From: Dehalococcoidia bacterium
GTDB taxonomy: Bacteria; Chloroflexota; Dehalococcoidia; SM23-28-2; WHTN01
Assembly: GCA_009377715.1 (NCBI GenBank)
Contig: WHTN01000006.1
Coordinates: forward strand, 1-57,503
Reading direction: 5' to 3'
Length of the DNA: 57,503 nucleotides
Part shown: one piece after another, positions 13,709 through 57,503 of the stretch
Numbering within the stretch: position 1 is the first letter of the stretch
How the letters are laid out: each line of letters opens with the position of its first letter
The notes under the pieces: generated by a model
What the model was told of the DNA's origin: nothing
Seen by the model: only the letters and a program-made list of their open reading frames with translations
Database searches by the model: none
Position numbers and translations under genes: made by a program

Positions 13709-14983
13709 ATGGTCAACCTGAACGAGCTTGTAAATCCCGCGACGGGCATGGTCAACCGTAACATCTACGTAGATCGCGAGATCTACGAGCAAGAGTTGGA
13801 GAAGATATTCGCCCGTTGTTGGTGCTACCTCGGTCACGAATCGCAAGTACCGAACCCTGGCGATTTTGTCGCCTCGTACATCGGCGAAGACCCAGTGCTG
13901 GTAGTACGAGACTCTCGCGGCAAGATAGGAGCGTTCCTGAACACCTGTCGCCACCGCGGCATGCGCGTCTGCCGGGCGGACGAGGGGAACGCAGCCGCGT
14001 TCACCTGTACGTACCATGGCTGGACGTATGGCAACGACGGCAAGCTCGTGGGCGTGCCGGGTTACAAGGAGTACTACTACGAAGAGTTGGATATGGAGCA
14101 ATGGGGCCTCGTGCCCGTGGCACAGGTTGATTCTTACAAAGGTATGATATTCGGCACGTTCGACGCGAATGCTACCTCGCTCCCAGAATATCTCGGCGAT
14201 ATGACCTTCTACCTGGACATCCTCATCGATAGGCGCGAGGGTGGCTCGGAGATTATAGGGGGCGTGCACAAGTGGATAATGCCCTGCAACTGGAAGTTCG
14301 CCGCCGAGAACTTCGGCGGCGACGGTTACCACTTCCCCATCACGCACATCTCTGCGTTCGCTTCCGGGGCGCGGCGAGACCAGGCGATACGCCGAGCCAC
14401 GGGCATCGGCACCGAGTCTACCCAATTCGTCGTCAGCCCGGGAAACGGCCACAACGTGATGACCGGCGTCCACAACGGCGTGCCGCCCGAAGGACCGACG
14501 GAGCTCTTCGACGACTACATCGTGCAGATCTTTCCCGAGATGGAAGAGAGGCTTGGCCCCCTGCGAGCGCGCATGTCGGGCGGTGTCGGCAACATATTCC
14601 CGAACATGTCGTTCCTGCGCGGCGGCGGCTCAGGCGCGCATACCCTGCGGGTGTGGCATCCCCGCGGTCCGGACAAGATAGAAGTGTGGTCGTGGGCGAT
14701 CGTCGATAAGAAAGCGCCGCCCGAGATCAAGGAAGCGAACAGATTCTATTGCACCGGGTCGTTCAGTCCCGGCGGCATCTTCGAAATGGACGACGCCGAG
14801 AACTGGGTGGCGGCCACACAGGCGAGTTCAGGCTATATGGGTCGGCAGCAGGTGTTCAACTACTCGATGGCGGTGGGCCATCAGCGTACCAGCGAAGACC
14901 ATCCTGGCTCGCTCGGGCCATCGCCGAGCGAGCATAACCAGCGAAATCTGTACGCTCGCTGGCTGGAACTGATGAATAGCTAG
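13709..14983 (+). CDS. Rieske ring-hydroxylating oxygenase alpha subunit (copy 1)
   Basis: Rieske CRHRG...CTYHGW; mononuclear Fe ligands DGYHFPITH and EMDDAENW; CNWKFAAENF resembles HcaE/BphA1-type alpha subunits. Confidence 0.95.
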   Translation: MVNLNELVNPATGMVNRNIYVDREIYEQELEKIFARCWCYLGHESQVPNPGDFVASYIGEDPVLVVRDSRGKIGAFLNTCRHRGMRVCRADEGNAAAFTCTYHGWTYGNDGKLVGVPGYKEYYYEELDMEQWGLVPVAQVDSYKGMIFGTFDANATSLPEYLGDMTFYLDILIDRREGGSEIIGGVHKWIMPCNWKFAAENFGGDGYHFPITHISAFASGARRDQAIRRATGIGTESTQFVVSPGNGHNVMTGVHNGVPPEGPTELFDDYIVQIFPEMEERLGPLRARMSGGVGNIFPNMSFLRGGGSGAHTLRVWHPRGPDKIEVWSWAIVDKKAPPEIKEANRFYCTGSFSPGGIFEMDDAENWVAATQASSGYMGRQQVFNYSMAVGHQRTSEDHPGSLGPSPSEHNQRNLYARWLELMNS

Positions 14984-15087
14984 CACGAAAGCTGCAAAGT
15001 CGCCCGCTTTTTTTATACTTCCTTAACACCTTCTTTAAGGGAGAGGAGTATCCTGGAGAAGGAGGATATAATAGAAGGAGGTTGAAC

Positions 15088-15537
15088 ATGGCAGTAAAAC
15101 CGATTCCAGAGGGCTATCACACCGTTACGCCTGGTATGGCAGTCCCTAACGTAAAGGGCGTGATCGAATTCCTCAAGCAGGCGTTCGGCGCTGAAATGAT
15201 AGAGGAGCCTATGATGCGGCCAGACGGCGGCGTCATGCACGCCGAAGTAAAGATCGGCGACTCCATCATCATGTTGGGCGAACCGATGGGCGAGCAGTGG
15301 GGCCCTATGCCCGGCAGCTTCTGTTTGTACGTTCCTGATACTGACTCGGTCTACAAGCGAGCGCTTCAAGCCGGAGGCGAAACGCTTATGGAGCCAGCCG
15401 ACCAGTTCTGGGGCGACCGCATGGCCGGCGTCAAAGACAAGGGCGGCAACTTCTGGTGGCTGGCGACGCGCGTTGAGGAGGTATCGCGTGAGGAGATGGG
15501 CAAGCGCGCGGAAGCGTTCATGGGGCAAAATCGCTAG
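15088..15537 (+). CDS. VOC/glyoxalase family protein (PhnB-like)
   Basis: VKPIPEGYHTVTP, MHAEVKIGDSIIML, DQFWGDRMAGVKD; AAGGAGG ribosome-binding site before ATG 15088. Confidence 0.9.
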   Translation: MAVKPIPEGYHTVTPGMAVPNVKGVIEFLKQAFGAEMIEEPMMRPDGGVMHAEVKIGDSIIMLGEPMGEQWGPMPGSFCLYVPDTDSVYKRALQAGGETLMEPADQFWGDRMAGVKDKGGNFWWLATRVEEVSREEMGKRAEAFMGQNR

Positions 15538-15630
15538 GTAAGTAACGGAGTAACGCGCATCGGCATGCAGCCTTGCTAAGTTGAGCGACGCGCGTTAAAA
15601 TAGCACAAAAGTAGGGAAAAGGAGGAACAA

Positions 15631-16497
15631 ATGGCAGACGTACAAACTAGAACCAGAGTCCTACACCTTCCCGATGAGATAGCCAAGGGCGGTTTTCACC
15701 CGTTGCAAGGACCGAATGCGGGTAGGCTCGGCGGCTACACAATTTTGGACCTGGCGCCTGACAAGGAGCGCACCAAGCACCTCGTCGAAATCGTGAATAT
15801 CGAGCCGGGGAGCAGCAAGTTTAACCATTATCACGACGGCGCAGAGACCATTACTATCATCCTAGAGGGCGAAGGCGAGTACGTCCTCGATGAGGATAAG
15901 ACCGTTCCCGTGAAGCCGGGGGACATCTGCATGTCCCTACCTGGTCAAATTCATGGCTCTCGTAACACCGGCAAGGGTCCGCTTCGCTACTTCGTCGTGG
16001 AAGGGCCACTGCCCCTCCAGATGCAGGAAGGGGCAAGGCCAAAGCCAGGCGACACGCCCAACCGCAAGCTGAACCTTAAGGAAGTAATCGATACCTGGAA
16101 GTTCGTGGAGATAGCGCCGGAGAACATGCCCGCTCAGATGCGCGGCCCGCAGGGCCCTTCCCGCGGCCAACGGCCCGAGCTAGCGGGCTACACTGTGGTC
16201 TTCCTGGTTGACCATCCGGACAGCCTTCACCAGGTAGAGATCGTGAACATCGAACCTGGGCATGGCAAGTTTGCCCATTATCACGACAACGCTGAGACAT
16301 TCCAATACTTCGTAGAGGGCGAAGGCGAGTTCGTGCTAGGCGATGGCAACACCGTGCCGGTGAAGCCCGGCTCCATGACCCACGCTTTCCCGGGCGAAGT
16401 CCACGGCACTGTTAACAAGGGCAACACGCCCCTTCGTTACGTAGTGATCGAAGGACCTCTACCGCTCGGCGGCACTAACCCCGTTGAAGTGCACTAG
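15631..16497 (+). CDS. Bicupin protein (copy 1)
   Basis: Two cupin domains, each with HxHxxAE...EGEG...PG..HG..N.G..PLRY. Confidence 0.88.
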   Translation: MADVQTRTRVLHLPDEIAKGGFHPLQGPNAGRLGGYTILDLAPDKERTKHLVEIVNIEPGSSKFNHYHDGAETITIILEGEGEYVLDEDKTVPVKPGDICMSLPGQIHGSRNTGKGPLRYFVVEGPLPLQMQEGARPKPGDTPNRKLNLKEVIDTWKFVEIAPENMPAQMRGPQGPSRGQRPELAGYTVVFLVDHPDSLHQVEIVNIEPGHGKFAHYHDNAETFQYFVEGEGEFVLGDGNTVPVKPGSMTHAFPGEVHGTVNKGNTPLRYVVIEGPLPLGGTNPVEVH

Positions 16498-16518
16498 ACC
16501 GTACAGATCGAAGAATAA

Positions 16519-16562
16519 GCGACCTAAAGGTCGCCACTGGCAGCCTAAAGGCTGCCCTCTAC
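16519..16562. repeat. Doublet of short TAAA-loop hairpins (GTAG-type REP-like)
   Basis: GCGACC-TAAA-GGTCGC and GGCAGCC-TAAA-GGCTGCC-CTCTAC (minus strand starts GTAG); similar hairpin CCCCAGCC-TAAA-GGCTGGGG at about 29383. Confidence 0.55.
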
Positions 16563-16666
16563 ATTACGTCCTTCGAAATACTTGTCAGGCTACGGCATAT
16601 TATGCTAAAGTGTGCGAAAAGTAGGCTCATATAGGATGATGCCTACATATCAGGTAGGAGGAGCAA

Positions 16667-17536
16667 ATGGCAGACGTACAAACTAGGACACGGACGTGGG
16701 ATATCCCCGCTGAAATTGCCAAGGGTGACTTCGGCCCAGTCCCTGGGATCGACATGAGTAAGTTGCCAGGATATACGGTCAAGGTCCTGGTCGACGACCC
16801 GAAGACGCAGCACCTCATCGAGATCGTCAACATCGACCCTGGCATGAGCAAGTACAACCACTGGCACGAGAACGCCGAGACCGTCACGATTTTCCTCGAA
16901 GGCGAAGGTGATTACGTCCTGGACGAGGACAAGACGATGCCGATTAAGCCCGGCTTCATCTGCTCGGCGCTGCCAGGCGAGGTTCACGGCGCCCGCAACA
17001 CCGGCAACGTGCCGCTTCGCTACTTGGTAGTCGAAGGCCCGCTCCCCCTAGGCATGCGGGAAGGTGCCAGGCCACTGGACGGCAGCAGGCCCAACCGCGT
17101 TCTCGACTCCAAAGAGGTGATCGCTACCTGGAAGTTCGTACCGATCGCCCCGGAGAACATGCCCGCTCAGTTGCGCCAGCCAGCGCCGGACCCGAGCGCT
17201 CCCCGCACGAACCCCGAGCTTCGTGGCTACACCGTAGTCTTCCTAGTAGACCACGAAGACAGCAAGCACATGGTCGAGATTGTCAACATCGAGCCCGGCC
17301 AGGGCAAGTATGCTCACGTCCACCAGAACGCAGAGACCGTCCTCTACTTCCTGGAAGGCGAGGGCGAGTTCGTAATGGACAACGGCGCGAAGCTGCCCGT
17401 GAGGCCTGGCACGATGTGCCACGCCTTCCCCGGCGAAGTCCACGGCACGATAAACAAGGGCAACACGCCACTTCGTTACGTCGTCGTCGAAGGCCCGACG
17501 CCGATCGGCGGCACCACTGCCGTCGAGGTCCACTAG
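16667..17536 (+). CDS. Bicupin protein (copy 2, tandem paralog)
   Basis: Same N-terminus MADVQTRTR and C-terminus VEVH as copy 1; two HxH...E...H cupin motifs. Confidence 0.88.
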   Translation: MADVQTRTRTWDIPAEIAKGDFGPVPGIDMSKLPGYTVKVLVDDPKTQHLIEIVNIDPGMSKYNHWHENAETVTIFLEGEGDYVLDEDKTMPIKPGFICSALPGEVHGARNTGNVPLRYLVVEGPLPLGMREGARPLDGSRPNRVLDSKEVIATWKFVPIAPENMPAQLRQPAPDPSAPRTNPELRGYTVVFLVDHEDSKHMVEIVNIEPGQGKYAHVHQNAETVLYFLEGEGEFVMDNGAKLPVRPGTMCHAFPGEVHGTINKGNTPLRYVVVEGPTPIGGTTAVEVH

Positions 17537-17553
17537 TCCATAAGGGATTCAAA

Positions 17554-17597
17554 AATAAAAGTAGACGGGCAGTAAAAACTGCCCGTCTACTTTATTA
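17554..17597. terminator. Rho-independent terminator (potentially bidirectional)
   Basis: 20-bp perfect inverted repeat AATAAAAGTAGACGGGCAGT / ACTGCCCGTCTACTTTTATT just after the cupin pair. Confidence 0.9.
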
Positions 17598-17742
17598 GCG
17601 CTTATCAACCAGCGGTCTATATTGCTCGTGATATCGGCTATGGAAATAGCTGATAAAAGTTTCTCTTATTGACCGTAAGTCTAGTTGAGTGTATAAGGGT
17701 TTTACTACAAAATTCGCTAAAGGCGGAAGGAGAAAGACGTTA

Positions 17743-19428
17743 GTGGCAATGCAAACTGAGAACACCTACTGGCAGCGATTCTGGGGTAAGCGTGTGGGCC
17801 GGCGCAGGCTGCTGCAAGGCGCAGCTCTTGGCAGCGCTGGCTTGGCGGCCGCAGCGGTCATCGGCTGCGAGGAAGAGGAGGGTGGTTCGACTTCGTCGCC
17901 CGGGGCATCCCCGAGTGGCGGCGCCTCCGACCAACCGCGGTCGGGTGGAACGATCACCTTCGTCCAGACCAACAGCGACAGCACTCCCATGGACATCCAC
18001 AAGATCTCTTTCAATGCTTCGCACCGCCCCGGCGTTGCCTATAGCAAGTTGATGATGCACGACCTTACCAAGTACCCTAACGAGCTCAGTTTCACGGGCG
18101 ACTTGGCGGAGAGCTTCGAGATACCCGAACCAACAACTTACGTCTTCCACCTAAATAGAGGGGTCAAGTGGCAGAACATACCTCCGCTCAGTGGTCGTGA
18201 GCTCAAGGCCAGCGACATCGTTTACAGCTACGAACGCCAGAGGAGCGAGGGCGTGAACGGCGCCATCATCGGCTCCATCAATACAATTGAAGCGACCGAC
18301 GACTACACCTTACGGATTACCCTGAAGAAGGCAGACGCCGACTTCCTCTTTTCAATCGCCGACAACCGAACTCAGGTGATAGCGCCGGAGGCGGTAGAAG
18401 TGAACGGCAATCTGGATAACGGTCCGATCGTCGGCACAGGGCCATGGATCTTCGAAGAGCGAATTCCAGACCAAATCCTGAAGATGCGTAAGAACCCTGA
18501 CTATTTCCGGCCGGGGATCCCCTACGCCGACCGCTATGAAAGCCCGGTGATCCTCGACACCAACACTGCTCAGGCCGCGTTCCGCACTGGTCAGATCCAT
18601 GATGTGCCCACAAACGGGCAGATCACCGAACTGCTCCGATCTAGCGTCCGCGACCTTGAGGTACTGGACCAAAAATTGTTGATCGCCGGCGGCGGCGACA
18701 GGCTTTGGGTATCGCCACTCAACGGCCCGACGAAGGACGTCCGCGTTCGGCAGGCCCTCGGCAAGCTATTCGATCGCGACGCCATCATCCGCGACATCTA
18801 CTTCGGCAGCGGCTGGAAGAACTCAGGTATCTTCACCAACCTCAGCGACTGGCTGCTACCAGAGGCCGAGTTGAATAGGCACTACGGCTATAACCCCACG
18901 GAGGCGAAGCAGATGCTTGAAGCCGCGGGAGTGGACTTGGCGAACTGGAAGCCGCAGCTAGACGCCGGCATCGCCAGCACTCAGAACTCGCCAACCACCG
19001 AATACTACGTCGCGCAACTGAAGTCTGTTGGCATCGACGCCCGGATACAAGTTATCGACAAGGTGGAGATCACTGACCGCGTGTTCGGCCGAGGAGAGAC
19101 AGATTTCTGCATCTGCAACAACGCCCCAACCCGTGGCACCAACCCCCACCTCTACACCTTCTTCCACACGACCGGCCGCGGCGCCCTGCTCTTTAAGCAG
19201 CTTGGCGACTCGCAGTTCGACAGCCTTATCGACAAGCAGTCCACGATCCTCAATGCAGAAGAGCGCAAGGCTGCTGTTCAAGAAGTACAACGCCGTAATC
19301 TGGAACTCGCGATTGCCATTATGGTGGTCAACAACAACGGTGAGACTGCCATCTCCCCGAAGGTCGGAGGGTTCAAGAACAACCCTGAGGAGCAACTCCG
19401 CTTCGCTTACACCTGGCTAAGGGCCTAA
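17743..19428 (+). CDS. Tat-exported lipoprotein, ABC family-5 solute-binding protein (orphan, copy 1)
   Basis: YWQRFWGKRVGRRRLLQGA...VIGC leader; GDLAESFE, VGTGPW, RVRQALGKLFDR; AAGGAG upstream of GTG 17743 (ATG 17749 is an alternative start). Confidence 0.88.
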   Translation: MAMQTENTYWQRFWGKRVGRRRLLQGAALGSAGLAAAAVIGCEEEEGGSTSSPGASPSGGASDQPRSGGTITFVQTNSDSTPMDIHKISFNASHRPGVAYSKLMMHDLTKYPNELSFTGDLAESFEIPEPTTYVFHLNRGVKWQNIPPLSGRELKASDIVYSYERQRSEGVNGAIIGSINTIEATDDYTLRITLKKADADFLFSIADNRTQVIAPEAVEVNGNLDNGPIVGTGPWIFEERIPDQILKMRKNPDYFRPGIPYADRYESPVILDTNTAQAAFRTGQIHDVPTNGQITELLRSSVRDLEVLDQKLLIAGGGDRLWVSPLNGPTKDVRVRQALGKLFDRDAIIRDIYFGSGWKNSGIFTNLSDWLLPEAELNRHYGYNPTEAKQMLEAAGVDLANWKPQLDAGIASTQNSPTTEYYVAQLKSVGIDARIQVIDKVEITDRVFGRGETDFCICNNAPTRGTNPHLYTFFHTTGRGALLFKQLGDSQFDSLIDKQSTILNAEERKAAVQEVQRRNLELAIAIMVVNNNGETAISPKVGGFKNNPEEQLRFAYTWLRA

Positions 19429-19438
19429 GTAACAGAAG

Positions 19439-19470
19439 AAAAGGCCCCTCAGCAGTTGAGGGGCCTTTTT
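19439..19470. terminator. Rho-independent terminator
   Basis: AAAAGGCCCCTCAG-CAG-TTGAGGGGCCTTTTT between the SBP and RHO genes. Confidence 0.85.
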
Positions 19471-19500
19471 AATTAAGAATATTGCTAGAAAGGAGCAGCC

Positions 19501-20760
19501 ATGATCGACACAAGCAACCTCGTAAGCATGGAAACGGGCTTGATGGACAGACGCATCTACGTAGACCGCGAAATTTACGAGATGGAACTGGAACGCATCT
19601 TCGCTCGTACCTGGCTGTTCCTGGCACATGAGTCCCAGATACCGAACGCAGGTGATTTCGTTGCCGCCTACATGGGCGAAGACCCCGTACTGGTCGTTCG
19701 AGACTCGCGCGGCAACATCAACGCCTTCCTCAATACCTGTCGTCATCGCGGCATGCGCGTCTGCCGGGCAGATGCTGGCAACGCGGCGGCTTTCACCTGT
19801 ACGTACCACGGTTGGACGTATGGCAACGAGGGCAAGCTCGTGGGCGTGCCGGGCTACAAAGAGTACTACTACGAAGAGTTGGACATAGAGCAATGGGGCT
19901 TGGTGCCTGTGGCGCAAGTTGACTCCTATAAAGGACTGATCTTCGGCAACTTCGATGCCGATGCACCATCCCTAACTGAGTATCTCGGCGATATGAAGTT
20001 CTACCTCGATACGATGCTCGACCGCGTCGAAGGGGGAACAGAGATGATCGGCGGAATCCACAAGTGGGTCATGCCCTCTAACTGGAAATTCGCTGCGGAC
20101 AACTTCCAGGGCGATAACTACCACTTCCCCATCACCCATATCTCAGGTGTAAAGGCGGGCTTCGGCGGCACGACACCGAGGTCTTTGCTGGTCCGCACGA
20201 TCACCTCTTACGCCGGCCAAGGGCACGGCCTCGGCGTCTTTACCGAACGGCCGGAGTGGACGGATGCGCCGCTGGCGGAGTATATGGACGCTATCTGGCC
20301 GGAGATGGAGCAGCGCCTTGGCGAACAGCGCGCCAAGCACGTCTGGCCTGTAAACGGGACGGTATTCCCCAACATGTCATTCCTCGGTCTCGACCCAATG
20401 CGGACGATCCGCGTGTGGCACCCACGCGGCCCTGACAAGATCGAAATATGGTCATGGGTGTATGTCGATAAGAAGATGTCCGCAGAGGTCAAGGATATCA
20501 GCAGACTCAACACTCTTTGGGGACAGGCCGGCCCAGGCTCCACTTTCGAGGCAGACGACGGCGAAAACTGGGAGCAGTGCACGACGAGCAGCAAAGGCCG
20601 GGTCGCACGGCACTACCGCTTCAACTACTCGCTAGGCCTCGACCGTCACCGTACGGACGAGGAATTCCCCGGCAAAGTCGGCAATGCTGCGAATGAAATC
20701 AACCAGCGCGGCTTCTATGAGTACTGGCAGCACCTAATGGGCGGCGGAGACTTAGTTTAA
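19501..20760 (+). CDS. Rieske ring-hydroxylating oxygenase alpha subunit (copy 2)
   Basis: CRHRG...CTYHGW, DNYHFPITH, EADDGENW. Confidence 0.95.
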   Translation: MIDTSNLVSMETGLMDRRIYVDREIYEMELERIFARTWLFLAHESQIPNAGDFVAAYMGEDPVLVVRDSRGNINAFLNTCRHRGMRVCRADAGNAAAFTCTYHGWTYGNEGKLVGVPGYKEYYYEELDIEQWGLVPVAQVDSYKGLIFGNFDADAPSLTEYLGDMKFYLDTMLDRVEGGTEMIGGIHKWVMPSNWKFAADNFQGDNYHFPITHISGVKAGFGGTTPRSLLVRTITSYAGQGHGLGVFTERPEWTDAPLAEYMDAIWPEMEQRLGEQRAKHVWPVNGTVFPNMSFLGLDPMRTIRVWHPRGPDKIEIWSWVYVDKKMSAEVKDISRLNTLWGQAGPGSTFEADDGENWEQCTTSSKGRVARHYRFNYSLGLDRHRTDEEFPGKVGNAANEINQRGFYEYWQHLMGGGDLV

Positions 20761-20767
20761 CTCTAGT

Positions 20768-21637
20768 CTAATTTGCGCCGCGAACTTCGACATAGCCGTC
20801 CACAATGCGAGTTTCGAGGCGCGGCTGCGGAAATGTAGCTGGGCCATTGAGCACGCGGCCGTCATCCAGAGCGAAGCGCGAGGCATGCCAGGGACAGATG
20901 ATGCTCTCGTCAACCAGTTTGCCTTCCGGTAACGGGCCACCGAGATGCGAACATATCCCGACGAGCGCGTAGATGCTGCTCCCTTGCCGTACGAGCAGGA
21001 CCGGAACGCCTTGGACGTCTACACCGCGCGGTGCGCGCTCCTGTAGTTCCGATTCGCGCAATATACGTACGAAATCGGTCGGCAGATGTATGCCATCCAC
21101 ACGGCTGACGCCTATGCGCTGGCCATAAACCATATGCCCGCCAAGATACGCCGAAAGCAACGCGATATTGAAGCCCACAAACCCCATAGCAAAACCGAGC
21201 GGCCTGGCGTGCCGGCTGCGTAGTATCATCGACGTGGCATAACTCGACATTGCGGCGCTGTTTAGGAGCGCATGAGCAACGCCGGTGCGGCGCGCCCCGC
21301 CGCTGGTGTGCTGCCAGTCTGTTAGTCCGCTGAGCGCGGCGCCCATGCCGGCTATAAGCCCTAGGCCAATTGCTGCATCAGCAGCCCCGCGGCTCTTCTG
21401 GTCCTTGCCGAAAATCTCCAGCAAGTCCAATACGTAAGCCATAGTCCAGGCGCCTATCGCAACATCCGTAAAAACGGGATGAAGCGGGTGCCCTGACCAG
21501 GTGCCGTGCAGAAAGTTCTTAACTTTTTGCCCGGCGCCTCCACTCGCCCGGTATACGCCTTCGACCGACCGCTGGAGCCTATCGCCAACTCTATCCAGCC
21601 AGTCCTGCTGATCCAACTTGTCAAAAAGCTGTTGCAT
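20768..21637 (-). CDS. DUF2231-like membrane domain fused to a C-terminal Rieske [2Fe-2S] ferredoxin domain
   Basis: LHGTWSGHPLHPVFTDVAIGAW, GLTDW, AYLGGHMVY in a hydrophobic N-terminal half; CSHLGGPL...CPWHASRF...GPA in the C-terminal half. Confidence 0.88.
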   Translation of the reverse strand: MQQLFDKLDQQDWLDRVGDRLQRSVEGVYRASGGAGQKVKNFLHGTWSGHPLHPVFTDVAIGAWTMAYVLDLLEIFGKDQKSRGAADAAIGLGLIAGMGAALSGLTDWQHTSGGARRTGVAHALLNSAAMSSYATSMILRSRHARPLGFAMGFVGFNIALLSAYLGGHMVYGQRIGVSRVDGIHLPTDFVRILRESELQERAPRGVDVQGVPVLLVRQGSSIYALVGICSHLGGPLPEGKLVDESIICPWHASRFALDDGRVLNGPATFPQPRLETRIVDGYVEVRGAN

Positions 21638-21642
21638 TATAT

Positions 21643-22011: not shown

Positions 22012-23278
22012 TTATTCGACGGCTAAAGCCGCCTCGCGTTGCGTCGGGGAGTCGTGTTCTTGCACAAAGGCCCAGAAGACCGCTGCCGAAGTCACGGAAG
22101 CGACCGCTGCTGCGGGGCCTAGCAGAGTATAGCTGTCGCTGGCGTTGATGATCAGGCTGCCAATCAGCGAGCCCGTCACCACGCCGAAATTCATCGTCGC
22201 GTTGGTCAGCGCCATTATCGTCCCCCGCGCCCGCGGCGCCATCTCGGAAAGCATCGCCTGGGCATTCGTGTAGTGGTTGCCGTTAGCGATGGAGGCAAAG
22301 ATGAGAAAGAGAAACGCCAGCACCGACGTCTTCACCGCCACGGTCAAAAGCGCTTTGAAAAGCGCATCGACCAATCGACCGCCCACTATAAGCGTTCGCC
22401 TACCGTTACGGTCACCTAGCTGACCGCCGATGTTGCTGCCGATGACGTACGAAACGTTGATCACGACGACCGGGGATACCCGCTAACGACAATGGCAGCC
22501 CGTGGACATCGGTGAAGTAAGCCGCCAGGAAGGTGAAAATGATGCCCCAATGGATATCGTTGAGGTAGTTGGCTAGCAAAGCCATCCTTGTCCGGCGCTC
22601 ATGCAAAACGATTTCGATGGCTTGTCTGAAACCTATCTTCTCTGCGTTTGGGTCATCGGAACGTGTGGAGGAGGAAGCCATTAGCCAGAGGAACGCAGCC
22701 GCGATTACGCTTATCGCCGCGATGAAGACGAAGTTCAGCCGCCATGAGACCGTATCGGCGAGAACGGCGCTTGCAGGAAGCGCCAGCAAGTTGGCGGCCG
22801 TGTTCACGCTGAACACCCAAGCCATCGCCCGGCCACGTTCGTTATAGGGAAAGTAATCGCCGATAGCAGCCAGAACGGCGGCCATCAGTGCCGCCGAACC
22901 GACGCCAGCGAAGGCGCGGGTGGCAACGAGAACCCAGAAGTTTGGGGCGACGGCCGAAAGGACGCTCGAGACAGCGAAGATAACCAGGCCAGCGAGGATT
23001 ATGGGCTGGCGCCCTATGCGGTCGATGGTCGGCCCGACAGCGATAGAGCCGACGCCGGCCACCAGCGAAAACGCCACCGTCAGGAGGCCACCTACTGCTA
23101 TGCCGACGCCGAAGTCGTCGACGACCTCCGGCAGAATAGGGACGAGGATGAAGATATTAAAAGTGGATGCGAAGGAAGCGACACACAGCAGGGCCAGGAC
23201 GAACCTGCGATTGCCGCCTCCCTGCTGACCAGCTCGCATCTTGCTCACGAACGGAAGGCGGGCTAGGGCGGAAAGCAT
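22012..23278 (-). CDS. MFS transporter (frameshift near 22470)
   Basis: Motif A GPTIDRIGRQ in 22412-23278 and the second-half GGQLGDRNGRR in 22012-22464. Confidence 0.85.
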
Positions 23279-23359
23279 GCTAAGATTCTAGCGTTTTGCT
23301 ACCGCTTTATCTATGGCTTTGGGCGGGTTAACTTGAAGGGACTTCAGTCATCTCGGTTG

Positions 23360-29207: not shown

Positions 29208-29441
29208 TGTGTTGACCCACTTTTGCTCCACGACGATTTCGTGGCCGTTGAGTTGACTTGTGTCAGGCCACCGTTGTAACAGGACTGTAAACGCGGTGAG
29301 CAAGCCAAGGTCCGTTAGAGGTGCTCTTTCACGATGGTTAAAACCGCGGTTATCTAGTTAAGCTGCGGGTTAAGCAAGGAGACCCCAGCCTAAAGGCTGG
29401 GGCATCTGGATTGCTCGTTCTGTTCCGGGCTGGAGGGACTC

Positions 29442-43521: not shown

Positions 43522-43603
43522 CGGAAGCCTCCTTACTTAGGATTACTGCCTAAAGCTTAGCATAAAAAGACGCCATACTGTAGTCCAGGTCTTCCATTCG
43601 TGC

Positions 43604-45047: not shown

Positions 45048-46735
45048 TCAGGCGGCGAACCAAGCCTCCGCGTAGCGATGTGGCTCGTTCGGATCGTTCT
45101 GGTAACCACGAAGCTTCGGCTGGATAGCTTCAGTATTCGTCCTGGAGTAAATCGGAACGACGATCGCCGTCTCCAAGACCTTCCTCTGCACATCCTCAAG
45201 AATAGCCTCGCGTTCCTCGGCGTCCAAAGTGGTAGCCTGCCTGTCAATTAAGCTATCGAGCTGCGTGTCCGCCAGCTGCTTGTATGGGGCGGCGAAGCGG
45301 CCCGAGGAGTGATAGAAGATAAGCAGTTCGCCGTTAGTACCGCTGAAAGTGGGCTTATTGCAAATGCAGAACTCAGTTGTGGCGTTCAGCCAGATCTTGT
45401 CCGTGATCTCGACCTTGTCTACCTTGTGCACGGTGGCGTCGATGCCTATCTGCTTGAGAGTAGATATGTACACTTCGGTGGTTGGGTCGGTGGAGTCGGC
45501 GGTCGGAATACCGGAGTCCAGGACCGGCTTCCAGCTGACGGGGTCGAATCCGGCAGCCTGGAATAGCTGTCTGGCTTCCTGGACGTTGTAACTGACGTAC
45601 TTATTCATTTCGTCGGGTGACAGATGCCAGTCGAGGGAGGGCAGGAAGATGCCCGTGCTTTCCCAACCAGCGCCGAAAAGAACGTCGCGAATCAGGGCTT
45701 AGGCGGTCGAACAGCTTGCCGAGGGCCTGACGCACGCGTGCATCCCGTGTGGGACCGGTGGCAGGCGACATCCAGAGTCTGTCACCGCTAGCCGCTCCCA
45801 TTAATTTGCCTTCCACAATCTGCATATCGGGCACGCCCTGCCTGAGCAGACGGGTGATCTGGTCGTTGGTGCGGTTGTTGAGGACCTGGCCGGTACGGAA
45901 AGCCGCCTGGCCCGTCTGAAGGTCAGTAATCGTGAGCATCTGCCACTCATCGGCGTAGGGCATGGGACTCAAGACATACTCTGGGTTCCTCTTTAACGTC
46001 GTAACCTGTTCTGGCACCCACTCTTCGAATATCCATGGGCCGGTGCCGATCAGCGGCCCGTCCTTAAGGTCACCGCCCGCAGCCTCCACGGCTTCGCGTG
46101 GCATTATCTCCGATCGCGGGTCATGGATCGCCCACAGGAAGTCAGCGTTTGGCTGCTTGAGCGTGATCCTCACGGTATAGTCGTCAGGAGCTTCCATTCT
46201 ATCTACGGAGGCCAGCACAGAGCCGTTTACCTTCTCGTCGATCATGCGCTGAAGGCTGTAGACTACATCGCTGGACTTTAGTTCGCGACCGTTGACCGGC
46301 GCGATGTTGTGGAATTTAACTCCCTTGCGCAGGTTGAATACGTAGGTAGTAGCGTCGGGGATCTGGTGACTCTCGGCCAGTTCAGGCGCGAAATCGATCG
46401 TGTTCGGATACTTGGTCATGTCGTGCCGGAGCATCTTGTTATAGACGGCGCCTGAGCGGAACATAGTAGTGTGCCCGATCTTGTGGATGTCGAGCGTAGG
46501 CGCCGCTTCCGAGCTCTGGCTTACGTAAACGTGCGTTCCGCCCCGTTGGGGCGTATCGCTCGCCGCACCACCACTACCCGTCGGCTGTGAGATCGAACCG
46601 CTCTCCTCCTCGCCACAGCCGATAACGGCTGCTGCCGCCAGTCCCGCGCTTCCTAACGCTGCCCCCTGCAGCACGCGACGACGACTCACTCTCTTTTTGC
46701 CAGAAGTTCTGCCAGTAGGTTTTTTCGTTACTCAC
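45048..46735 (-). CDS. Tat-lipoprotein family-5 solute-binding protein (copy 2; frameshifts near 46695 and 45700)
   Basis: GTG 46735 after AAAGGAG gives VSNEKTYWQNFWQK / RVSRRRVLQGA...VIGC; ORFs 45601-46689 and 45048-45608 align end to end with copy 1. Confidence 0.85.
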
Positions 46736-52217: not shown

Positions 52218-52376
52218 AGCCCTGCAGATACATACCTCAATTCCATAAATACGATCGCAGTCGCAAGAAAGGAGATCGCTACGGCCGCCTTTGGCGACCC
52301 CGCAATGACGGCACTGCGCTATGCGTACCTAGCTGCAGACCTGAAAGTCTGCCTCTTCCTGCAGCTGAAGGACACG

Positions 52377-53657
52377 TTACGCTTTGATTAGCTCAGTCCA
52401 GTCCTTGCCGGCCATTAGATCTGACCAAAAGGAGTAGATGTTGCGCTGGTTCGCCTCGCCGGGCCCTTCGACGAAGGTGCCCGGCAATTCTTCATCGAAC
52501 CGCTCCTGGCCAAGGCGTAGCTGATAGTTGAAGTCGTACCTTCTTGCGACGCGCCCGTTGCTGGACTCGGTGCACATATTCCAGTTCTCGCCATCGTCTT
52601 GCTCCAGCATCCCGCCGGGGCCGGATTGGCCGCGCAGGTTTTGCACTCGGTAGATGTCCTTGATCTCCGGCGGCGCCTCCTTATCGACGATGCACCACGA
52701 CCACGCTTCGACCTTATCGGGCCCGCGCGGGTGCCAGACGCGAATAGTATGATTAGCGTCGGTCACCTGGAAGGAGAAGTTTGGGAAGATCGTACCTGTG
52801 TTCGTCCACACCTTCTGCGCCCTTAACTCTCCCATCTGTTTTTCCCTTTGCGACCAGACTCCCTCCAAATACGAAGCGAGTTCGGGAAGTCGCGGCGGCT
52901 GATTTTCCAATGCCAAGCTTGTGCCATGGCCGTAGTCCGTGTAGACGGTGAAGCTGGGAACAGGCGTTCTGAGGCGATCGGTGCTCCGCCCGCCCAGACC
53001 GACCTTGAGGGCAGAGATGTGGGTGATGTTGAAGTGGTAGCCGTCCGGGCTGAAGTTGTCGGCGGCGAACTTCCAGTTGCTGGTCATGACCCACTTCTGC
53101 GTTCCGCCGACGAGTTCTGTACCGCCCGGAGTACGTTCGAGGAACGTGTCGAGGTAGAAGGTAATATCGCCGAGGTACTCCCGCAAGGACGGAGCTTCAG
53201 GGTCGAACGTGCCGAAGATCAAGCCTTTGTACGAGTCCACCTGGGCAACCGGCACCAAGCCCCACTGCTCTATATCTAGCTCTTCGTAGTAGTACTCTTT
53301 ATATCCTGGCACACCCACCAGTTTGCCGTCGTTACCGTACGTCCAGCCGTGGTACGTACAGGTGAAAGCAGCCGCATTGCCTGCGTCCGCGCGGCAGACG
53401 CGCATGCCGCGATGGCGGCACGTATTTAGGAAGGCGTTGATCTTGCCGCGTGAATCGCGGACGACCAGCACCGGGTCTTCGCCGATGTATGCAGCGACGA
53501 AGTCGCCGGGGTTGGGTATCTGCGACTCGTGGGCCAGGAAACCCCAGCAGCGCGCGAAGATGCGCTCCAGTTCGAGTTCGTATATCTCTCGGTCTACGAA
53601 GAGACGGCGACTGACCAAGCCGCTCTTAGAGTTAACGAGTTCGCTGACGTCGATCAT
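52377..53657 (-). CDS. Rieske ring-hydroxylating oxygenase alpha subunit (copy 6)
   Basis: CRHRG...CTYHGW, DGYHFNITH, EQDDGENW; AAGGAGG before ATG 53657, 17 nt after the SBP stop. Confidence 0.95.
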   Translation of the reverse strand: MIDVSELVNSKSGLVSRRLFVDREIYELELERIFARCWGFLAHESQIPNPGDFVAAYIGEDPVLVVRDSRGKINAFLNTCRHRGMRVCRADAGNAAAFTCTYHGWTYGNDGKLVGVPGYKEYYYEELDIEQWGLVPVAQVDSYKGLIFGTFDPEAPSLREYLGDITFYLDTFLERTPGGTELVGGTQKWVMTSNWKFAADNFSPDGYHFNITHISALKVGLGGRSTDRLRTPVPSFTVYTDYGHGTSLALENQPPRLPELASYLEGVWSQREKQMGELRAQKVWTNTGTIFPNFSFQVTDANHTIRVWHPRGPDKVEAWSWCIVDKEAPPEIKDIYRVQNLRGQSGPGGMLEQDDGENWNMCTESSNGRVARRYDFNYQLRLGQERFDEELPGTFVEGPGEANQRNIYSFWSDLMAGKDWTELIKA

Positions 53658-53674
53658 AAACGCCCTCCTTTGCT

Positions 53675-55351
53675 TTAACTCTTCAACCAAGCATAGGCGA
53701 ACCGGTACGGCTCCTGAGTATCATTCTTGTAGCCGGCGACACGCGGCTGAATCGCGACTTCTCCGGTCTGGCCCACGGTTGGCGAAGCCACAGCGTCCAT
53801 TAGTCCGCGGCGCACTGCATTTAGCAAGACCGGCTTACGTTCTTCCGGCTCCAGTATCGTCGATTGGGCCTCGATCAAGCGGTCAAATTCGGCATCCGCA
53901 AACTTCTTCCAGTAAGTTGCAACGCCACCATTAGAATGGAAGTAGTTGAACAGATGTAGGTTCGTGCCTCGCGGAGCTGGGTCGTTAAGGATCGCTATCG
54001 GCTCCTTGGCCGACCTAAAGATTTCGATTACTTCCTGACTCTCAATAGGCCGGAGCTGGGCTCTGATACCGATCCTTGCCAACTCGGCGAGGAAGCTCTC
54101 CGCTGTCCCGACGTTCCTCTGGTAGGCAACCCCGTTTGGTATGACCGGGTTTAGGGAGCCGGGGTCGACGCCGGCAGCCTGCAGCAGCTGCTGGGCTTGC
54201 TGAGGATTGTAACCTACCAAGTTATCAAACTCACTTTGCGGCAGGATCCAGTCCAGGGAAGGGACGAACATCATTGGGTGCAGCCAGCCGCTGCCAAAGT
54301 ACACCTGATCAAGAATTTGCTCGCGGTTGAAGAGCTTGGCCAGAGCTTGCCTGACCCTCTGGTCGGTATAAGGCGGTACCGTTGGGTCTATCCAAAGGCG
54401 GTCGCCGGTCTGATTGAGCAGTCTGGCGTCCAGCACGTAGAGGTCCGGGACCGTCTGTTTGAGCAGGTCAGTGGTCTGGCCGACCGTGCCGATTATGTCG
54501 ATCTGCCCAGTTCGGAAGGCAGATATCTCAAGGTTGGGGTCTTCGAGACGGTAAACTTCGTGCCGTTCCATATAGGGAAGGGACTGGCCATCGCTGCCAT
54601 CTATATAGAACTCCGGGTTACGCGTCGACGCGGTTAATGCAGTATCGGCATCGTTTGGAGACCAGATCCAGGCGCCAGAGCCGATGATCGGTCCCTCCAC
54701 CAGGTCGCCTCCCGCCGCCTCGACGCTCTCTGGCGGGACGATGGGGGTACGAAGGTCGCTCAGCGCCCAAAGGAGGTCGGCATCGGGCTGGGACAGCGTA
54801 ACTCGAACTGTAGAATCGTCCGGCGCCTCTACGTTTGTCACAGCCCTGAGCGTGCCGCCATTTACCTCGGCCTTCTGCCTCTGGTAGCTAAATACGACAT
54901 CCGATGCTCTCACGTTCCGGCCGCCCACCGGCGGAATATTTTGATATGTAACGGCTGGGTTGATCTTGAACACCCAGACCGTAGGCTCGGCAACCTCCCA
55001 GTTCTCGGCTATGTCCCCTATGAAAGTAACCTCATCCGGATATTTGTCGAGGTCGTGGCGGGCCAAGCGGCCGTAGTTGCCATGTGATTGCGGCTGGGAA
55101 AAGGTGCTCTTGTGCGGGTCCCAAGTCGGGGCAAAGTCGACAGTGTTAAGGTCACGGAGGGTGCCGCCGCGGACGGGCTGATCAGAGGCGCCGCCGGTAG
55201 CGACCGGACTAGCTCCGCTATCGCCTTCTTCCTCGCCGCAACCGATTACGGCCGCCGCCGCGATGCCTGCGCCACCCAGTACTACCCCCTTCAACGCGCG
55301 GCGCCGCGTAATGCGCCTCCGCCAGAAACGATCCCAGTAGTTAGTTTCCAT
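53675..55351 (-). CDS. Tat-lipoprotein family-5 solute-binding protein (copy 3)
   Basis: METNYWDRFWRRRITRRRALKG...VIGC; PVRGGTL, GDIAENWE, RVRQALAKLFNRE. Confidence 0.9.
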   Translation of the reverse strand: METNYWDRFWRRRITRRRALKGVVLGGAGIAAAAVIGCGEEEGDSGASPVATGGASDQPVRGGTLRDLNTVDFAPTWDPHKSTFSQPQSHGNYGRLARHDLDKYPDEVTFIGDIAENWEVAEPTVWVFKINPAVTYQNIPPVGGRNVRASDVVFSYQRQKAEVNGGTLRAVTNVEAPDDSTVRVTLSQPDADLLWALSDLRTPIVPPESVEAAGGDLVEGPIIGSGAWIWSPNDADTALTASTRNPEFYIDGSDGQSLPYMERHEVYRLEDPNLEISAFRTGQIDIIGTVGQTTDLLKQTVPDLYVLDARLLNQTGDRLWIDPTVPPYTDQRVRQALAKLFNREQILDQVYFGSGWLHPMMFVPSLDWILPQSEFDNLVGYNPQQAQQLLQAAGVDPGSLNPVIPNGVAYQRNVGTAESFLAELARIGIRAQLRPIESQEVIEIFRSAKEPIAILNDPAPRGTNLHLFNYFHSNGGVATYWKKFADAEFDRLIEAQSTILEPEERKPVLLNAVRRGLMDAVASPTVGQTGEVAIQPRVAGYKNDTQEPYRFAYAWLKS

Positions 55352-55377
55352 TACATACTCCTTTTGCCTAAGTCCTT

Positions 55378-55470
55378 AGACATGAAGCCGAACGGGTTTG
55401 GTATCTGCGATTCGTGGCTGGAGAAGCACCAGTAGCGAGCGAAGAGCTACTCCAGCCTGTTCGTATATCT
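55378..55470 (-). pseudogene. Decayed 5' fragment of an RHO alpha gene
   Basis: Minus strand translates IYEQ / LE*LFARYWCFSSHESQIPNPFGF, matching IYExELERIFARCWxFLAHESQIPNPGDF of the intact copies. Confidence 0.8.
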
Positions 55471-55477
55471 TTGTTAC

Positions 55478-57160
55478 CTAACTCTTCAACCAAGTAAAGG
55501 CGAAGCGATGCGGCTCCTGGCTGTCGTGCTTGTAGCCCACGACCCGAGGCCGGATAGCGAATTCTTGCGTCTGGCCAACCGATGGTACAGCTACAGCGTC
55601 CGAGAGGCCCCGCCGTACGACCTCTAACAGAGCAGCCTTACGCCGCTCTGGCTCGTCCACTATCGTTGCCTGCGCCTCAATTAGCCTATCGAACTGAGTA
55701 TCTCCAAGCTTCTTCCAGTACGTCGCCACGCCACCACTCGAGTGGAAGTAGTTGAACAAGTGCAAGTTAGTGCCTCGCGGCGCCGGGTCGTTCAGTAACG
55801 ATATCGGCGCCTTGGCCGTGACAAAGACATCGATTACTTCTTGGCTTACAATGGGCTGAAGCTCGGCGGTGATCCCTATCTTCTTCATCTCGGACGCAAG
55901 GATCTCCGATATCGCAATGTTCCTGGCAAAGTTAGCTCCTGAGGGTATTGTGGGCCTGAATGACCCCAAGTCCACGCCGGCCGCCTGGAGCAGTTGCGTG
56001 GCCTGCTGCGGGTTGTAACCGACCAAGTTATCAAACTCCGACTGAGGCAAGATCCAGTCTAATGAAGGGACGAACATCATCGGGTTTACCCAACCGCTGC
56101 CAAAGAAGGCATTATTCTGTATCTCCTCGCGGTTGAACAGCTTGCCGAGGGCTTGCCTGACCCTCTGGTCGTTGTACGGCGACTGCGTCGCATCCATCCA
56201 GAGCCTGTCGCCGGTCTGGTTTAGTAGTTTGGCGTCCAGCACATAGAGATCGGGCACTGTCTGTTTGAGCAGCTCGGTAGTCTGGCCGTTGGTGTCCATG
56301 AGGTCGGCCTGCCCAGTGCGAAAAGCGGAAACCTGAAGGTTGGCATCTACAATGACTACCTGTTCTACATTCTCCATATAAGGGAGCGGCTGGCCATCCG
56401 TTCCTTTTCGGAAGAAGTCCGGATTGCGCCTCTTCTTGGATACTTGGTTTAGGACGTAGCTGGCCTGGTCCCAGATCCAGGCGCCGGTGCCGATGATCGG
56501 TCCTTCTTTCAGTTCGCCGCCCGCGGCCTCCACGCTCTCCGGTGGGATTATTGGCGTCCTCAGGTCACTAAGCGACCAGAGGAGGTCTGCATCCGGCTGC
56601 GCCAGAGTCACTCGAACGGTCAGGTCATCGGGCGCCTCCACCTTTGAGACAGCCCTGATGGTTCCCGCGTTCACGTTGGCCTTCTGTCTCTCGTAGCTGT
56701 ATACGACATCGCTTGCTTTGACAGTCCGGCCGTTCACTGGCGGAATATTATGATATTTGACGGCCGGGTTAATCTTGAAGACCCAAACAGTCGGCTCGGC
56801 GATCTCCCAGCTCGCCGCTATATCGCCGGTGAAGGTCACCTCGCCAGGATATTTATCGAGATCATGCATCGCTAGCCGGCCGTAGATGCCATGACCCCCC
56901 GGCTGCGCAAAGGTGCTCATGTGCATGTCCAGGGTTGGTGCGTGGTTGATTTGCGTAAACTCGTAAAGCGTCCCCCCACGTACCGGCTGATCAGAAGCTC
57001 CTCCGGTAGCCGTTGGAGCGGCGCCGTCACCCCCTTCCTCTTCATCGCAGCCGACTACAGCAGCCGCCGCGAGCCCCGCACCGCCTATCACAGCCCCCTT
57101 CAGTGCGTGGCGTCGCGTGATACGCCTCTGCCAGAAGCGATCCCAGTAGTTAGTGTCCAT
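55478..57160 (-). CDS. Tat-lipoprotein family-5 solute-binding protein (copy 4, close paralog of copy 3)
   Basis: MDTNYWDRFWQRRITRRHALKG...VVGC; long stretches identical to copy 3, e.g. PMMFVPSLDWILPQSEFDNLVGYNPQQA. Confidence 0.9.
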   Translation of the reverse strand: MDTNYWDRFWQRRITRRHALKGAVIGGAGLAAAAVVGCDEEEGGDGAAPTATGGASDQPVRGGTLYEFTQINHAPTLDMHMSTFAQPGGHGIYGRLAMHDLDKYPGEVTFTGDIAASWEIAEPTVWVFKINPAVKYHNIPPVNGRTVKASDVVYSYERQKANVNAGTIRAVSKVEAPDDLTVRVTLAQPDADLLWSLSDLRTPIIPPESVEAAGGELKEGPIIGTGAWIWDQASYVLNQVSKKRRNPDFFRKGTDGQPLPYMENVEQVVIVDANLQVSAFRTGQADLMDTNGQTTELLKQTVPDLYVLDAKLLNQTGDRLWMDATQSPYNDQRVRQALGKLFNREEIQNNAFFGSGWVNPMMFVPSLDWILPQSEFDNLVGYNPQQATQLLQAAGVDLGSFRPTIPSGANFARNIAISEILASEMKKIGITAELQPIVSQEVIDVFVTAKAPISLLNDPAPRGTNLHLFNYFHSSGGVATYWKKLGDTQFDRLIEAQATIVDEPERRKAALLEVVRRGLSDAVAVPSVGQTQEFAIRPRVVGYKHDSQEPHRFAFTWLKS

Positions 57161-57313
57161 AGCGTTTAATCTCCTAAAGCGCTGATTTCGCGCGCTAACT
57201 TTAAGCGGAACGATTAGAGTTTGTCAATCCTTTTTATAGGCTTGAGCATATTTTCACAAAGGATTCGTCGTCTGCTTGCCAGGATGAGGAGATAGCTGCA
57301 CGTTTTCTCAAAT

Positions 57314-57354
57314 AAACAGGGGGGCGGCTTCGACATGAAGCCGCCCCCCTGTTT
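57314..57354. terminator. Rho-independent terminator
   Basis: AAACAGGGGGGCGGCTTC-loop-GAAGCCGCCCCCCTGTTT. Confidence 0.85.
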
Positions 57355-57447
57355 CGAACGCTAGATCACTTAACGCGGACCAGACTCTGGGTGCCTGCAA
57401 AGTTGCTTTCTCGCATCAAGCACTCGTCGCTAAGCCTAAGGTCTATT

Positions 57448-57503
57448 TCAGCGCAAGTCGGCCCAGCTTTCGGCGTTTATCATTTCCGACCAGTACTCAT
57501 AAA
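57448..57503 (-). CDS. 3' end of a further RHO alpha subunit (enters from the right edge)
   Basis: Translates YEYWSEMINAESWADLR*, matching the C-termini FYEYWQHLM and WAELMAAESWDDIR of the other copies. Confidence 0.75.
   Translation of the reverse strand, partial: YEYWSEMINAESWADLR

Follow-up and report, generated by a model that had tools for sequence, protein, structure and literature searches.

The 57.5-kb contig WHTN01000006.1 (C84), which was analysed over its whole length and is referred to here as the window, raises the question of how a single bacterium makes use of a series of Rieske oxygenase alpha subunits whose genes lie apart from those of their usual partners. In solved alpha3beta3 systems the genes for alpha, beta, ferredoxin and reductase are clustered, with one alpha per beta. 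The window belongs to a 2.35-Mb Dehalococcoidia genome assembly (named G000) that consists of 109 contigs and is 93.55% complete, and it includes five intact alpha genes, a broken one, a 35-codon remnant and a 3′ end. An earlier note, made from the sequence of this stretch, had named six alpha open reading frames (ORFs), and in all six of them both the Rieske (PF00355) and the Ring_hydroxyl_A (PF00848) domains were found above the curated Pfam cut-offs. That note took the eight window genes to be the library, a number that proved too small: the library comprises 34 genes or more, of which the window has only about one sixth.

A profile search revealed 49 matches to PF00848 in the 2.35-Mb genome, and BLASTP analysis of all genome ORFs identified 34 full-length paralogs that are 57–72% identical to the first copy of the window. 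The family also includes about 11 partial or broken members (eight split into two or more ORFs, the broken window copy among them, two cut off by the end of a contig and one whose start is unclear), and three divergent alphas, with about 30% identity, exist besides it. With the orphan alpha encoded at 42211–43521 (minus strand) as the reference for residue numbering, C81, H83, C101, H104, D206, H209, H214 and D361 are present in 34 of 34 intact copies, all of which have the CxH...CxxH Rieske ligands, the bridging Asp and the 2-His-1-carboxylate iron site. The role of each of these residues we take to be that of its homolog in the solved enzymes. The nearest solved relatives are the alpha3beta3 enzymes HcaE, BphA1, TodC1 and CumA1, with E values from 1e-118 to 1e-100. 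HcaE is the best-scoring family and also the best PDB match (8K0A). Two window copies scored 444 and 432 bits against the HcaE equivalog NF042946, far below its cut-off of 830 bits, and the alphas are therefore not HcaE orthologs.

These proteins can be considered as a frozen Rieske block joined to a variable catalytic part. The block comprises 85 residues, 60–144 of the reference copy (nucleotides 43090–43344, minus strand), and includes the ligands C81, H83, C101 and H104, a segment (89–102) predicted to contact a beta subunit and a patch (119–127) that is specific to the genome. In the alignment of the six window copies exactly five of its columns vary, as the earlier note had counted. For the 34 paralogs the median pairwise identity of the block is 0.94 versus 0.50 for the part after it. 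Mean pairwise identity is 0.91–0.99 along residues 61–140 and falls to 0.10–0.26 along residues 221–280, which agrees with the earlier remark that the sequences can hardly be aligned beyond the HxxxxH motif. By analogy with related enzymes, the variable loops in this region would line the substrate pocket.

The constancy of the block is found in the protein and not in the DNA. Nei-Gojobori estimates from 561 pairs gave a pN of 0.038 and a pS of 0.60 for the block (dS about 1.2, dN/dS about 0.03), while the values for residues 221–300 were 0.53 and 0.72, respectively. Among codons for the same amino acid in the block, a fraction of 0.437 differ between copies, the expectation at saturation being 0.498 with the codon usage of the block or 0.576 with that found outside it. 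The ratio of observed to expected synonymous difference is 0.88 in the block and 0.87–0.93 in the flanking regions. Nucleotide identity of the block has a median of 0.83 and ranges from 0.77 to 0.90, and the longest identical run is 50 nt. With nearly saturated synonymous sites and no long identical tracts, the block is old in DNA and constant in protein. Purifying selection at the protein level thus holds some 80–90 residues of the Rieske domain almost invariant, which is what had been claimed from the six window copies; near-zero synonymous divergence, which would have pointed to copying of the block, was not found. Recent gene conversion and assembly collapse are ruled out as causes by the synonymous divergence and the tract lengths.

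A search of 40 relatives of the same order revealed a comparable expansion only in genome G002, with 27 PF00848 matches in 1.7 Mb; three of the others have one or two matches and 36 have none. The G002 copies of the family type have a near-constant block of their own, about 76% identical to that of G000. As a control for conservation, block identity was compared among pairs whose catalytic parts are 0.40–0.60 identical. Such pairs have a block identity of 0.94 in G000 (minimum 0.88, 541 pairs) and of 0.95 among the G002 family copies (27 pairs). In a divergent family of G002, at least six members of which adjoin a beta gene of their own, the value is 0.64 (18 pairs), and in other database homologues it is 0.67–0.71 (73 sequences). 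A similar invariance was therefore not found in these unrelated Rieske oxygenases, and generic conservation of the Rieske domain is ruled out as the cause by these controls at matched catalytic identity.

Comparison of G000 with G002 revealed two histories within one gene. Fourteen columns are fixed differently in the two genomes, in 34 of 34 G000 copies and in 8–9 of nine G002 copies. All of them are found among the 73 near-invariant columns of the block, with none among 60 in the catalytic part or 15 in the N-terminal part, and nine of the 14 lie in residues 115–127, immediately behind the GVP loop that adjoins the cluster. Identity within a genome exceeds that between the genomes chiefly at residues 51–130, with a peak of +0.50 at 121–130. 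For the catalytic domain this excess is about 0 in most ten-residue windows, the exceptions being +0.23 (211–220) and +0.15 (371–380). A maximum likelihood tree of the catalytic part was built from 281 columns after the block, using 34 G000 copies, nine G002 copies (one of them partial) and 12 database proteins, and leaving aside 11 partial and three divergent G000 copies and about seven partial ones of G002. In this tree the copies of the two genomes are interleaved, and the window alpha at 19501 groups with the G002 paralogs L002 and L003 (UFboot 95). Monophyly of the G000 copies is rejected by the catalytic alignment with a delta lnL of 65.5 (AU p = 0.014) in a full search; a fast search under the same constraint gave 104 lnL units and a p of about 0.001. 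In the block tree (FastTree) the copies of each genome are monophyletic, with SH-like support of 0.89 and 0.84, and the block alignment rejects the catalytic topology (delta lnL 314, AU p = 4.65e-7).

The same pattern is seen in the identities. The window alpha at 19501 and L002 of G002 are reciprocal best matches in the catalytic part, with an identity of 0.62; their blocks are only 0.72 identical, and the block of this alpha is at least 0.91 identical to that of every other G000 copy. Within-genome block identities (minimum 0.86) all exceed the between-genome ones (maximum 0.81). The mean catalytic identity is 0.503 within G000 and 0.476 between the genomes. It follows from this incongruence between domains that the block has changed jointly in all copies of each of the two genomes. 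In G000 and G002, then, the platform formed by the block follows the genome and the catalytic domains do not, a result of moderate statistical strength.

Several routes could have led to this situation: old gene conversion limited to the segment, parallel selection, or the fusion of newly arrived genes to the block already present in the genome. At columns 21 and 39 of the block all nine G002 copies (L001–L009) have Ser where G000 has Thr or Ala, and the Ser codons are split between the TCN and AGY families 5/4 and 6/3, respectively. The presence of both codon families hints at parallel substitution, at least at these two columns, as such a distribution would not be expected after a single conversion event; with the synonymous sites saturated, it is a hint and not a decision.

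A class-wide scan, in which up to nine candidates per genome were scored, gave a match in 61 of 301 genomes, and follow-up revealed two further expanded genomes, G203 and G137. G203 has 32 alpha matches in 1.2 Mb (75% complete), with 27 distinct alphas from 28 loci (L044–L092) and one frozen block. In G137 (1.3 Mb) the alpha matches number 21, and 14 loci gave 12 distinct alphas. This genome includes two frozen blocks, of six and five copies (L045, L050, L054, L059, L062, L065, L068, L071 and L093–L095), that are 0.58 identical to each other, plus one odd copy. The identities of the block and of the catalytic part are 0.94 and 0.50 in the G000 library, 0.96 and 0.51 in that of G002, 0.89 and 0.47 in that of G203, 0.98 and 0.69 in the first of the G137 libraries (G137-E1) and 0.96 and 0.56 in the second (G137-E2). 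Between libraries the block identity is 0.58–0.76. The frozen block is therefore library-specific, each of the five libraries having its own version. Neither this specificity nor the concerted change of the block in G000 and G002 had been anticipated in the earlier note.

The genome has few genes for the proteins with which the alphas would function. Ring_hydroxyl_B (PF00866) has four matches. One beta gene, on contig C62, is located 58 nt downstream of a family alpha and is the sole beta adjoining a member of the family. Two others lie 105–111 nt downstream of divergent alphas (about 30% identity), and the fourth, on contig C101, is about 6 kb from the third divergent alpha. There is one Reductase_C match of the BphG/HcaD type, a 410-residue Pyr_redox_2 protein encoded among housekeeping genes on contig C47, and three small Rieske ferredoxins of 103–113 residues were identified (contigs C72, C14 and C15), none of them near an alpha, beta or reductase gene. 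The C62 alpha-beta pair, the three ferredoxins and the reductase all have unrelated genes as neighbours. Other matches in the genome are one to NAD_binding_1, one to Fer4_15 and six to Fer2, the last mostly in frames of 160–200 amino acids. The genome-wide count is thus 34 intact family alphas versus one cognate beta, one reductase and three small Rieske ferredoxins, and a set of cognate partners at a ratio of about 1:1 was not found elsewhere in the assembly, subject to the approximately 6% of the genome that is missing.

The neighbourhoods of the alphas agree with this count, as no electron carrier was found among the 186 neighbour ORFs located within 3 kb of the 34 alphas. On the window contig, profile searches gave no match to Ring_hydroxyl_B, Reductase_C, Fer2 or a small soluble Rieske ferredoxin. 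The earlier statement that the window lacks beta, soluble ferredoxin and reductase genes was accordingly correct, with the qualification that a DUF2231-Rieske protein, putatively membrane-anchored and described below, is present. The earlier idea of many specificity modules served by a single donor and a single beta agrees with the evidence, with the correction that the candidate ferredoxins number three and not one. In the comparison of G000 with G002, six small ferredoxins were 35–42% identical to the C72 ferredoxin of G000. At this level no clear one-to-one pairing exists between the genomes.

Beta matches in the other expanded genomes number four in G137 and one in G203, the latter a fragment that immediately follows an alpha where the contig ends. 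The G203 layout resembles that around the C62 pair of G000, with one alpha-beta operon and many orphan alphas.

A complex was predicted for the orphan alpha at 42211–43521 (31-row alignment) and the C62 beta (4-row alignment). It scored 0.92 in three of three runs, the best of three controls being 0.00, with a partner pLDDT of 93 and a contact agreement of at least 97%. In calibration the mark was reached by 58 of 80 solved complexes and two of 110 mismatched pairs, figures that are approximate since the alignments were self-supplied. The beta contacts predicted for the block are positions 50–53, 70, 89–100, 102 and 110, and all but one of them are at least 0.88 identical throughout the library.

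The second surface that can be located in the block is that for the ferredoxin. In cumene dioxygenase, K117 and K141 belong to the side-wise ferredoxin site that was mapped by experiment (PMC9361823). According to a 2026 preprint, activity is lowered by R110A and K117A, whereas F144Y makes the enzyme more active when the ferredoxin is a foreign one (bioRxiv 10.64898/2026.04.03.713453). HMMER alignments to BphA1, TodC1, BphA and HcaE, together with the CumA1 match start, place K117 and K141 at positions A97 and K121 of the library, and the +20 offset thus defined, rather than an alignment to CumA1, places R110 at R90 and F144 at Y124. Some of the genome-specific columns would consequently be located at equivalents of ferredoxin-site residues or in the predicted beta interface, as judged from homology and from the model. 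The residue at the K117 position is Lys in BphA1, TodC1 and BphA, Arg in HcaE, and Ala in 34 of 34 library copies. A conserved basic residue at this position is described as a mark of alpha3beta3 oxygenases that use a Rieske-type ferredoxin (Batie class IIB/III; PMC9361823), and the library lacks it. In G137 the equivalent Lys is kept in one sub-library and not in the other.

We consider it probable that the alphas of a library share a few unlinked partners and that the frozen block is their common docking platform, specific to the library and re-tuned in each genome. That partners are shared is well supported, and the data point to them as the constraint on the block. The likely role as a platform is deduced from three sources, namely the numbers of genes, the interface predicted between alpha and beta, and the mapping of cumene dioxygenase mutagenesis. 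Under this reading each new substrate specificity would require one extra gene, in which the catalytic part varies and the Rieske block is kept, and every alpha would have to fit the same beta, the same reductase and one or a few ferredoxins. The platform could have changed across all copies together through old gene conversion confined to this segment, or because selection acted in parallel to fit the copies to the partners of the host. The alphas are often paired with a solute-binding protein gene of their own. A bolder version, which we offer tentatively, is that the frozen module acts as a standardised connector, so that any alpha could assemble with one beta and one donor, possibly in mixed-alpha hexamers, and a change of partner would be followed by re-tuning of all copies. 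If this were true, a combinatorial set of oxygenases would be obtained from a minimal genome, and G137 would have two insulated electron-supply circuits in one cell.

An excess of alphas this large could also mean that most paralogs are alpha3 homotrimers without beta, the block then reflecting a shared donor and the alpha-alpha contact. The 34 intact alphas with one cognate beta and the 32 alpha matches of G203 with one beta fragment are consistent with this idea, the same inference has been published for SAR202 (PMC6946804), and the library has lost the Lys whose counterpart in the ferredoxin site of cumene dioxygenase is R65 of beta. We nevertheless regard it as unlikely, because the closest solved relatives are all alpha3beta3 enzymes, binding of the C62 beta is predicted for the orphan alpha (possibly, it must be said, by likeness to solved structures), block segment 89–102 is invariant, and the catalytic positions predicted to touch beta are more conserved than the others (0.60, n = 38, vs 0.47, n = 254; one-sided Mann-Whitney p = 0.002). 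Even less probable, in our estimation, is an explanation without any constraint from shared partners, in which lineage-specific bursts generated the libraries, the block is frozen for cluster assembly, redox tuning or intramolecular fit, and the interleaving of G000 and G002 is an artefact or the result of transfer. In support of it, the G203, G137-E1 and G137-E2 copies are each monophyletic in the catalytic tree (support 0.99, 0.89 and 1.0, respectively), catalytic identity is slightly higher within G000 than between the genomes, and the AU p for G000 monophyly is only 0.014. On the other hand, blocks differ by 24–42% between libraries and two of them coexist in G137; many block sequences therefore work, and the freeze depends on context. 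The divergent family of G002, in which at least six members have an adjoining beta gene, shows ordinary block divergence, the absence of genome-specific columns among the 60 catalytic ones argues against intramolecular co-adaptation, and the alpha at 19501 and L002 are reciprocal best catalytic matches.

The remaining alternative is that a single Rieske segment was spread over many genes, either by recent gene conversion or through collapse or chimerism of the assembly. Codon preferences that are specific to columns (at one Glu column all 34 copies have GAA, whereas GAG is preferred at others) and a block pS somewhat under the 0.71 of the rest of the gene could be taken as traces of such an event. 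We give it next to no probability in view of the nucleotide identities and tract lengths mentioned above, a synonymous ratio like that of the neighbouring regions, a lowest pairwise pS of 0.33, and the fact that six copies are found on one 57.5-kb contig, each in a different gene context.

Several observations weigh against the shared docking platform itself. More partner genes could lie in the gaps of an incomplete assembly of 109 contigs, and there are three ferredoxin candidates instead of one, none of them linked to an alpha. The predicted complex may have passed through likeness to solved alpha3beta3 structures, and the comparison of beta-contact positions was uncontrolled for burial. With Ala at the K117 equivalent, the type of donor or the mode of docking may differ from those of cumene dioxygenase, BphA and HcaE. 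Patch 119–127 lies outside the contacts predicted with the single modelled beta chain, and its putative location at the ferredoxin site comes from homology mapping. Where beta is predicted to touch alpha position 98, inspection by eye revealed no change to match, residues 54–58 of beta being the same in G000 and one G002 beta. The incongruence between G000 and G002 depends on one AU test with a p of 0.014, in which 12 of 74 outgroup proteins were picked by hand. Since the G203 and G137 libraries are monophyletic, lineage expansion and purifying selection suffice there and concerted evolution is not needed. Finally, saturation of the synonymous sites precludes dating of any homogenisation.

The expansion of alphas with few betas in SAR202 is already published (PMC6946804), and the earlier note had already mentioned the expansion itself. 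In that work group VII genomes have 1–62 alphas (COG4638) versus 1–3 betas, one group IV genome has 50 copies, the annotations include phenylpropionate-dioxygenase-like genes, and Saw et al. (mBio, 2020) inferred that these enzymes work without beta. Colatriano et al. (2018; PMC6123686) had counted the genes for aromatic degradation in the genome of a SAR202 bacterium from the Arctic. The system described here is similar in that a small, marine-type Chloroflexota genome has tens of alphas and few betas, and the host appears to be SAR202-like, a placement hinted at by homologues whose source is named 'Dehalococcoidia bacterium'. It differs in what is described: the passages of Saw et al. that deal with these genes give counts and annotations, and they contain no frozen module, synonymous divergence, library-specific blocks or incongruent histories (PMC6946804). 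Our literature search found nothing on concerted evolution, gene conversion or a shared beta of Rieske oxygenase paralogs, and nothing on SAR202 with Rieske and ferredoxin together. What appears to be new is the connector, frozen and different in each library, together with the conflicting histories of the gene's two halves.

Sharing of electron carriers is known from Sphingobium yanoikuyae B1, where, as Ferraro et al. (2007; PMC1847435) describe, a single ferredoxin and a single reductase serve at least six oxygenase sets. Several Rieske oxygenases with a single ferredoxin/reductase pair encoded apart from them are thus a feature of B1, as far as that account goes. Its oxygenase sets number about six and have paired genes, bphA1A2f being an example, in contrast to the at least 34 alphas found here (PMC1847435). 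In G000 there are one Reductase_C reductase and three small Rieske ferredoxins, none of them beside the alphas. Every B1 oxygenase set is said to have a beta of its own. With the cumene, biphenyl, toluene and phenylpropionate dioxygenases of known structure (1WQL, 1ULI, 2XR8, 3EN1 and 8K0A) the library shares the two-domain alpha fold and the Rieske and iron ligands, as well as, by prediction and mapping, the beta interface and the side-wise ferredoxin site inside the frozen block. It differs from these alpha3beta3 enzymes in the replacement of cumene dioxygenase K117 by Ala and in scores under the HcaE equivalog cut-off.

Matching of redox partners is considered a main obstacle to modular Rieske oxygenase biocatalysts (bioRxiv 10.64898/2026.04.03.713453). 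Nature appears to have solved this problem with one connector that is kept in front of dozens of catalytic domains about 50% identical to each other. The libraries can be regarded as a natural experiment on the residues that determine partner specificity, the candidates being the 14 genome-specific columns, nine of them in 115–127. How tens of oxygenases are run with almost no beta or ferredoxin genes, as in SAR202-like bacteria, becomes a testable question. For carbon cycling in the ocean, our results suggest a cheap way of widening the range of aromatic substrates in small genomes, with which the pairing of alphas with private solute-binding proteins fits.

This pairing is seen in the neighbourhoods of the alphas throughout the genome. 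A solute-binding protein gene on the same strand is located at most 1.5 kb upstream of eight of the 34 intact alphas and two of the three divergent ones. When the 186 ORFs within 3 kb of the 34 alphas were clustered, the families found were SBP_bac_5 (14), other alphas (13), MFS (7), bicupin (5) and VOC (4), and others, named by eye, are DapA-type aldolase-like (5), Ldh_2-like (4) and SDR-like (3). In the window, four SBP_bac_5 genes lie beside alphas, not counting the substrate-binding protein of an ABC operon.

The first alpha of the window (13709–14983, plus strand; 424 amino acids; Rieske 69 bits, Ring_hydroxyl_A 63 bits) is located directly downstream of that operon (9824–13531, plus strand), which codes for an ABC transporter substrate-binding protein and two permeases. 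It is followed by a gene with a glyoxalase/VOC fold and two bicupin genes (15082–17536, plus strand; Pfam), which likely code for downstream steps of ring cleavage. The second alpha (19501–20760, plus strand; 419 amino acids; Pfam), whose closest catalytic match is L002 of G002, has an SBP_bac_5 solute-binding protein gene (17689–19428, plus strand) directly upstream. Convergent with it, and with only 7 nt between the two stop codons, is the gene for the DUF2231-Rieske protein (20768–21637, minus strand), which is 289 residues long and has a Rieske domain at its C-terminus in addition to a DUF2231 membrane domain. This is the only ferredoxin-like Rieske protein of the window. It is 27% identical to the small C72 ferredoxin, and it might be a membrane-anchored electron carrier. 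The genome has one further DUF2231 gene (contig C52), without a Rieske domain.

The copy at 35167–36371 (minus strand; Pfam and alignment) is broken, with its Rieske block intact. The ORF at 35211–36371 codes for alpha residues 1–346, and an overlapping ORF in another frame, at 35167–35433, for residues 383–422. Some 36 codons have consequently been lost near residue 346, with a frameshift, in agreement with the deletion originally noticed. The reference alpha (42211–43521, minus strand; 436 amino acids; Pfam) and the alpha at 43604–44899 (minus strand; 431 amino acids) are intact and in tandem, the latter downstream of an SBP_bac_5 gene that is split into two ORFs (45048–46689, minus strand). 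A look-up of occurrence and expression listed no sequencing run for 42211–44899 and no RNA holder.

The fifth intact alpha (52377–53690, minus strand; 437 amino acids) overlaps by 16 nt the SBP_bac_5 gene upstream of it (53675–55351, minus strand). This gene and another SBP_bac_5 gene (55478–57160, minus strand) flank the alpha remnant in what can be considered repeated SBP-alpha units. The remnant (55363–55467, minus strand) consists of 35 codons with one internal stop, and tblastn (E = 5e-7) matched it to alpha residues 27–61, confirming the earlier assignment. Its position between two SBP genes suggests a tandem duplication of SBP-alpha units, followed by deletion of one alpha. The 3′ end proposed at the contig edge (57448–57503, minus strand) has its stop codon at 57448–57450 and a 17-residue C-terminal match at 57451–57501 that, with an E value of 0.3, is weak by itself.

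Genes of other functions in the window include those for complex I (nuo-type; 1–9380) and for ribonucleotide reductase. A nuoL-like gene (2475–4429, minus strand), an MFS gene (22012–23278, minus strand) and the SBP gene at 45048–46689 are each split into overlapping ORFs in different frames. Since a core respiratory gene such as the nuoL-like one is split as well, indel errors in the assembly are likely, and this weakens the counts of alphas taken to be pseudogenised. Three consecutive ORFs at 27550–29207 (plus strand; 129, 193 and 222 amino acids) have no Pfam match and lie where the G+C content of the window is lowest, with 0.50 at 28001–30000 compared with about 0.58 elsewhere.

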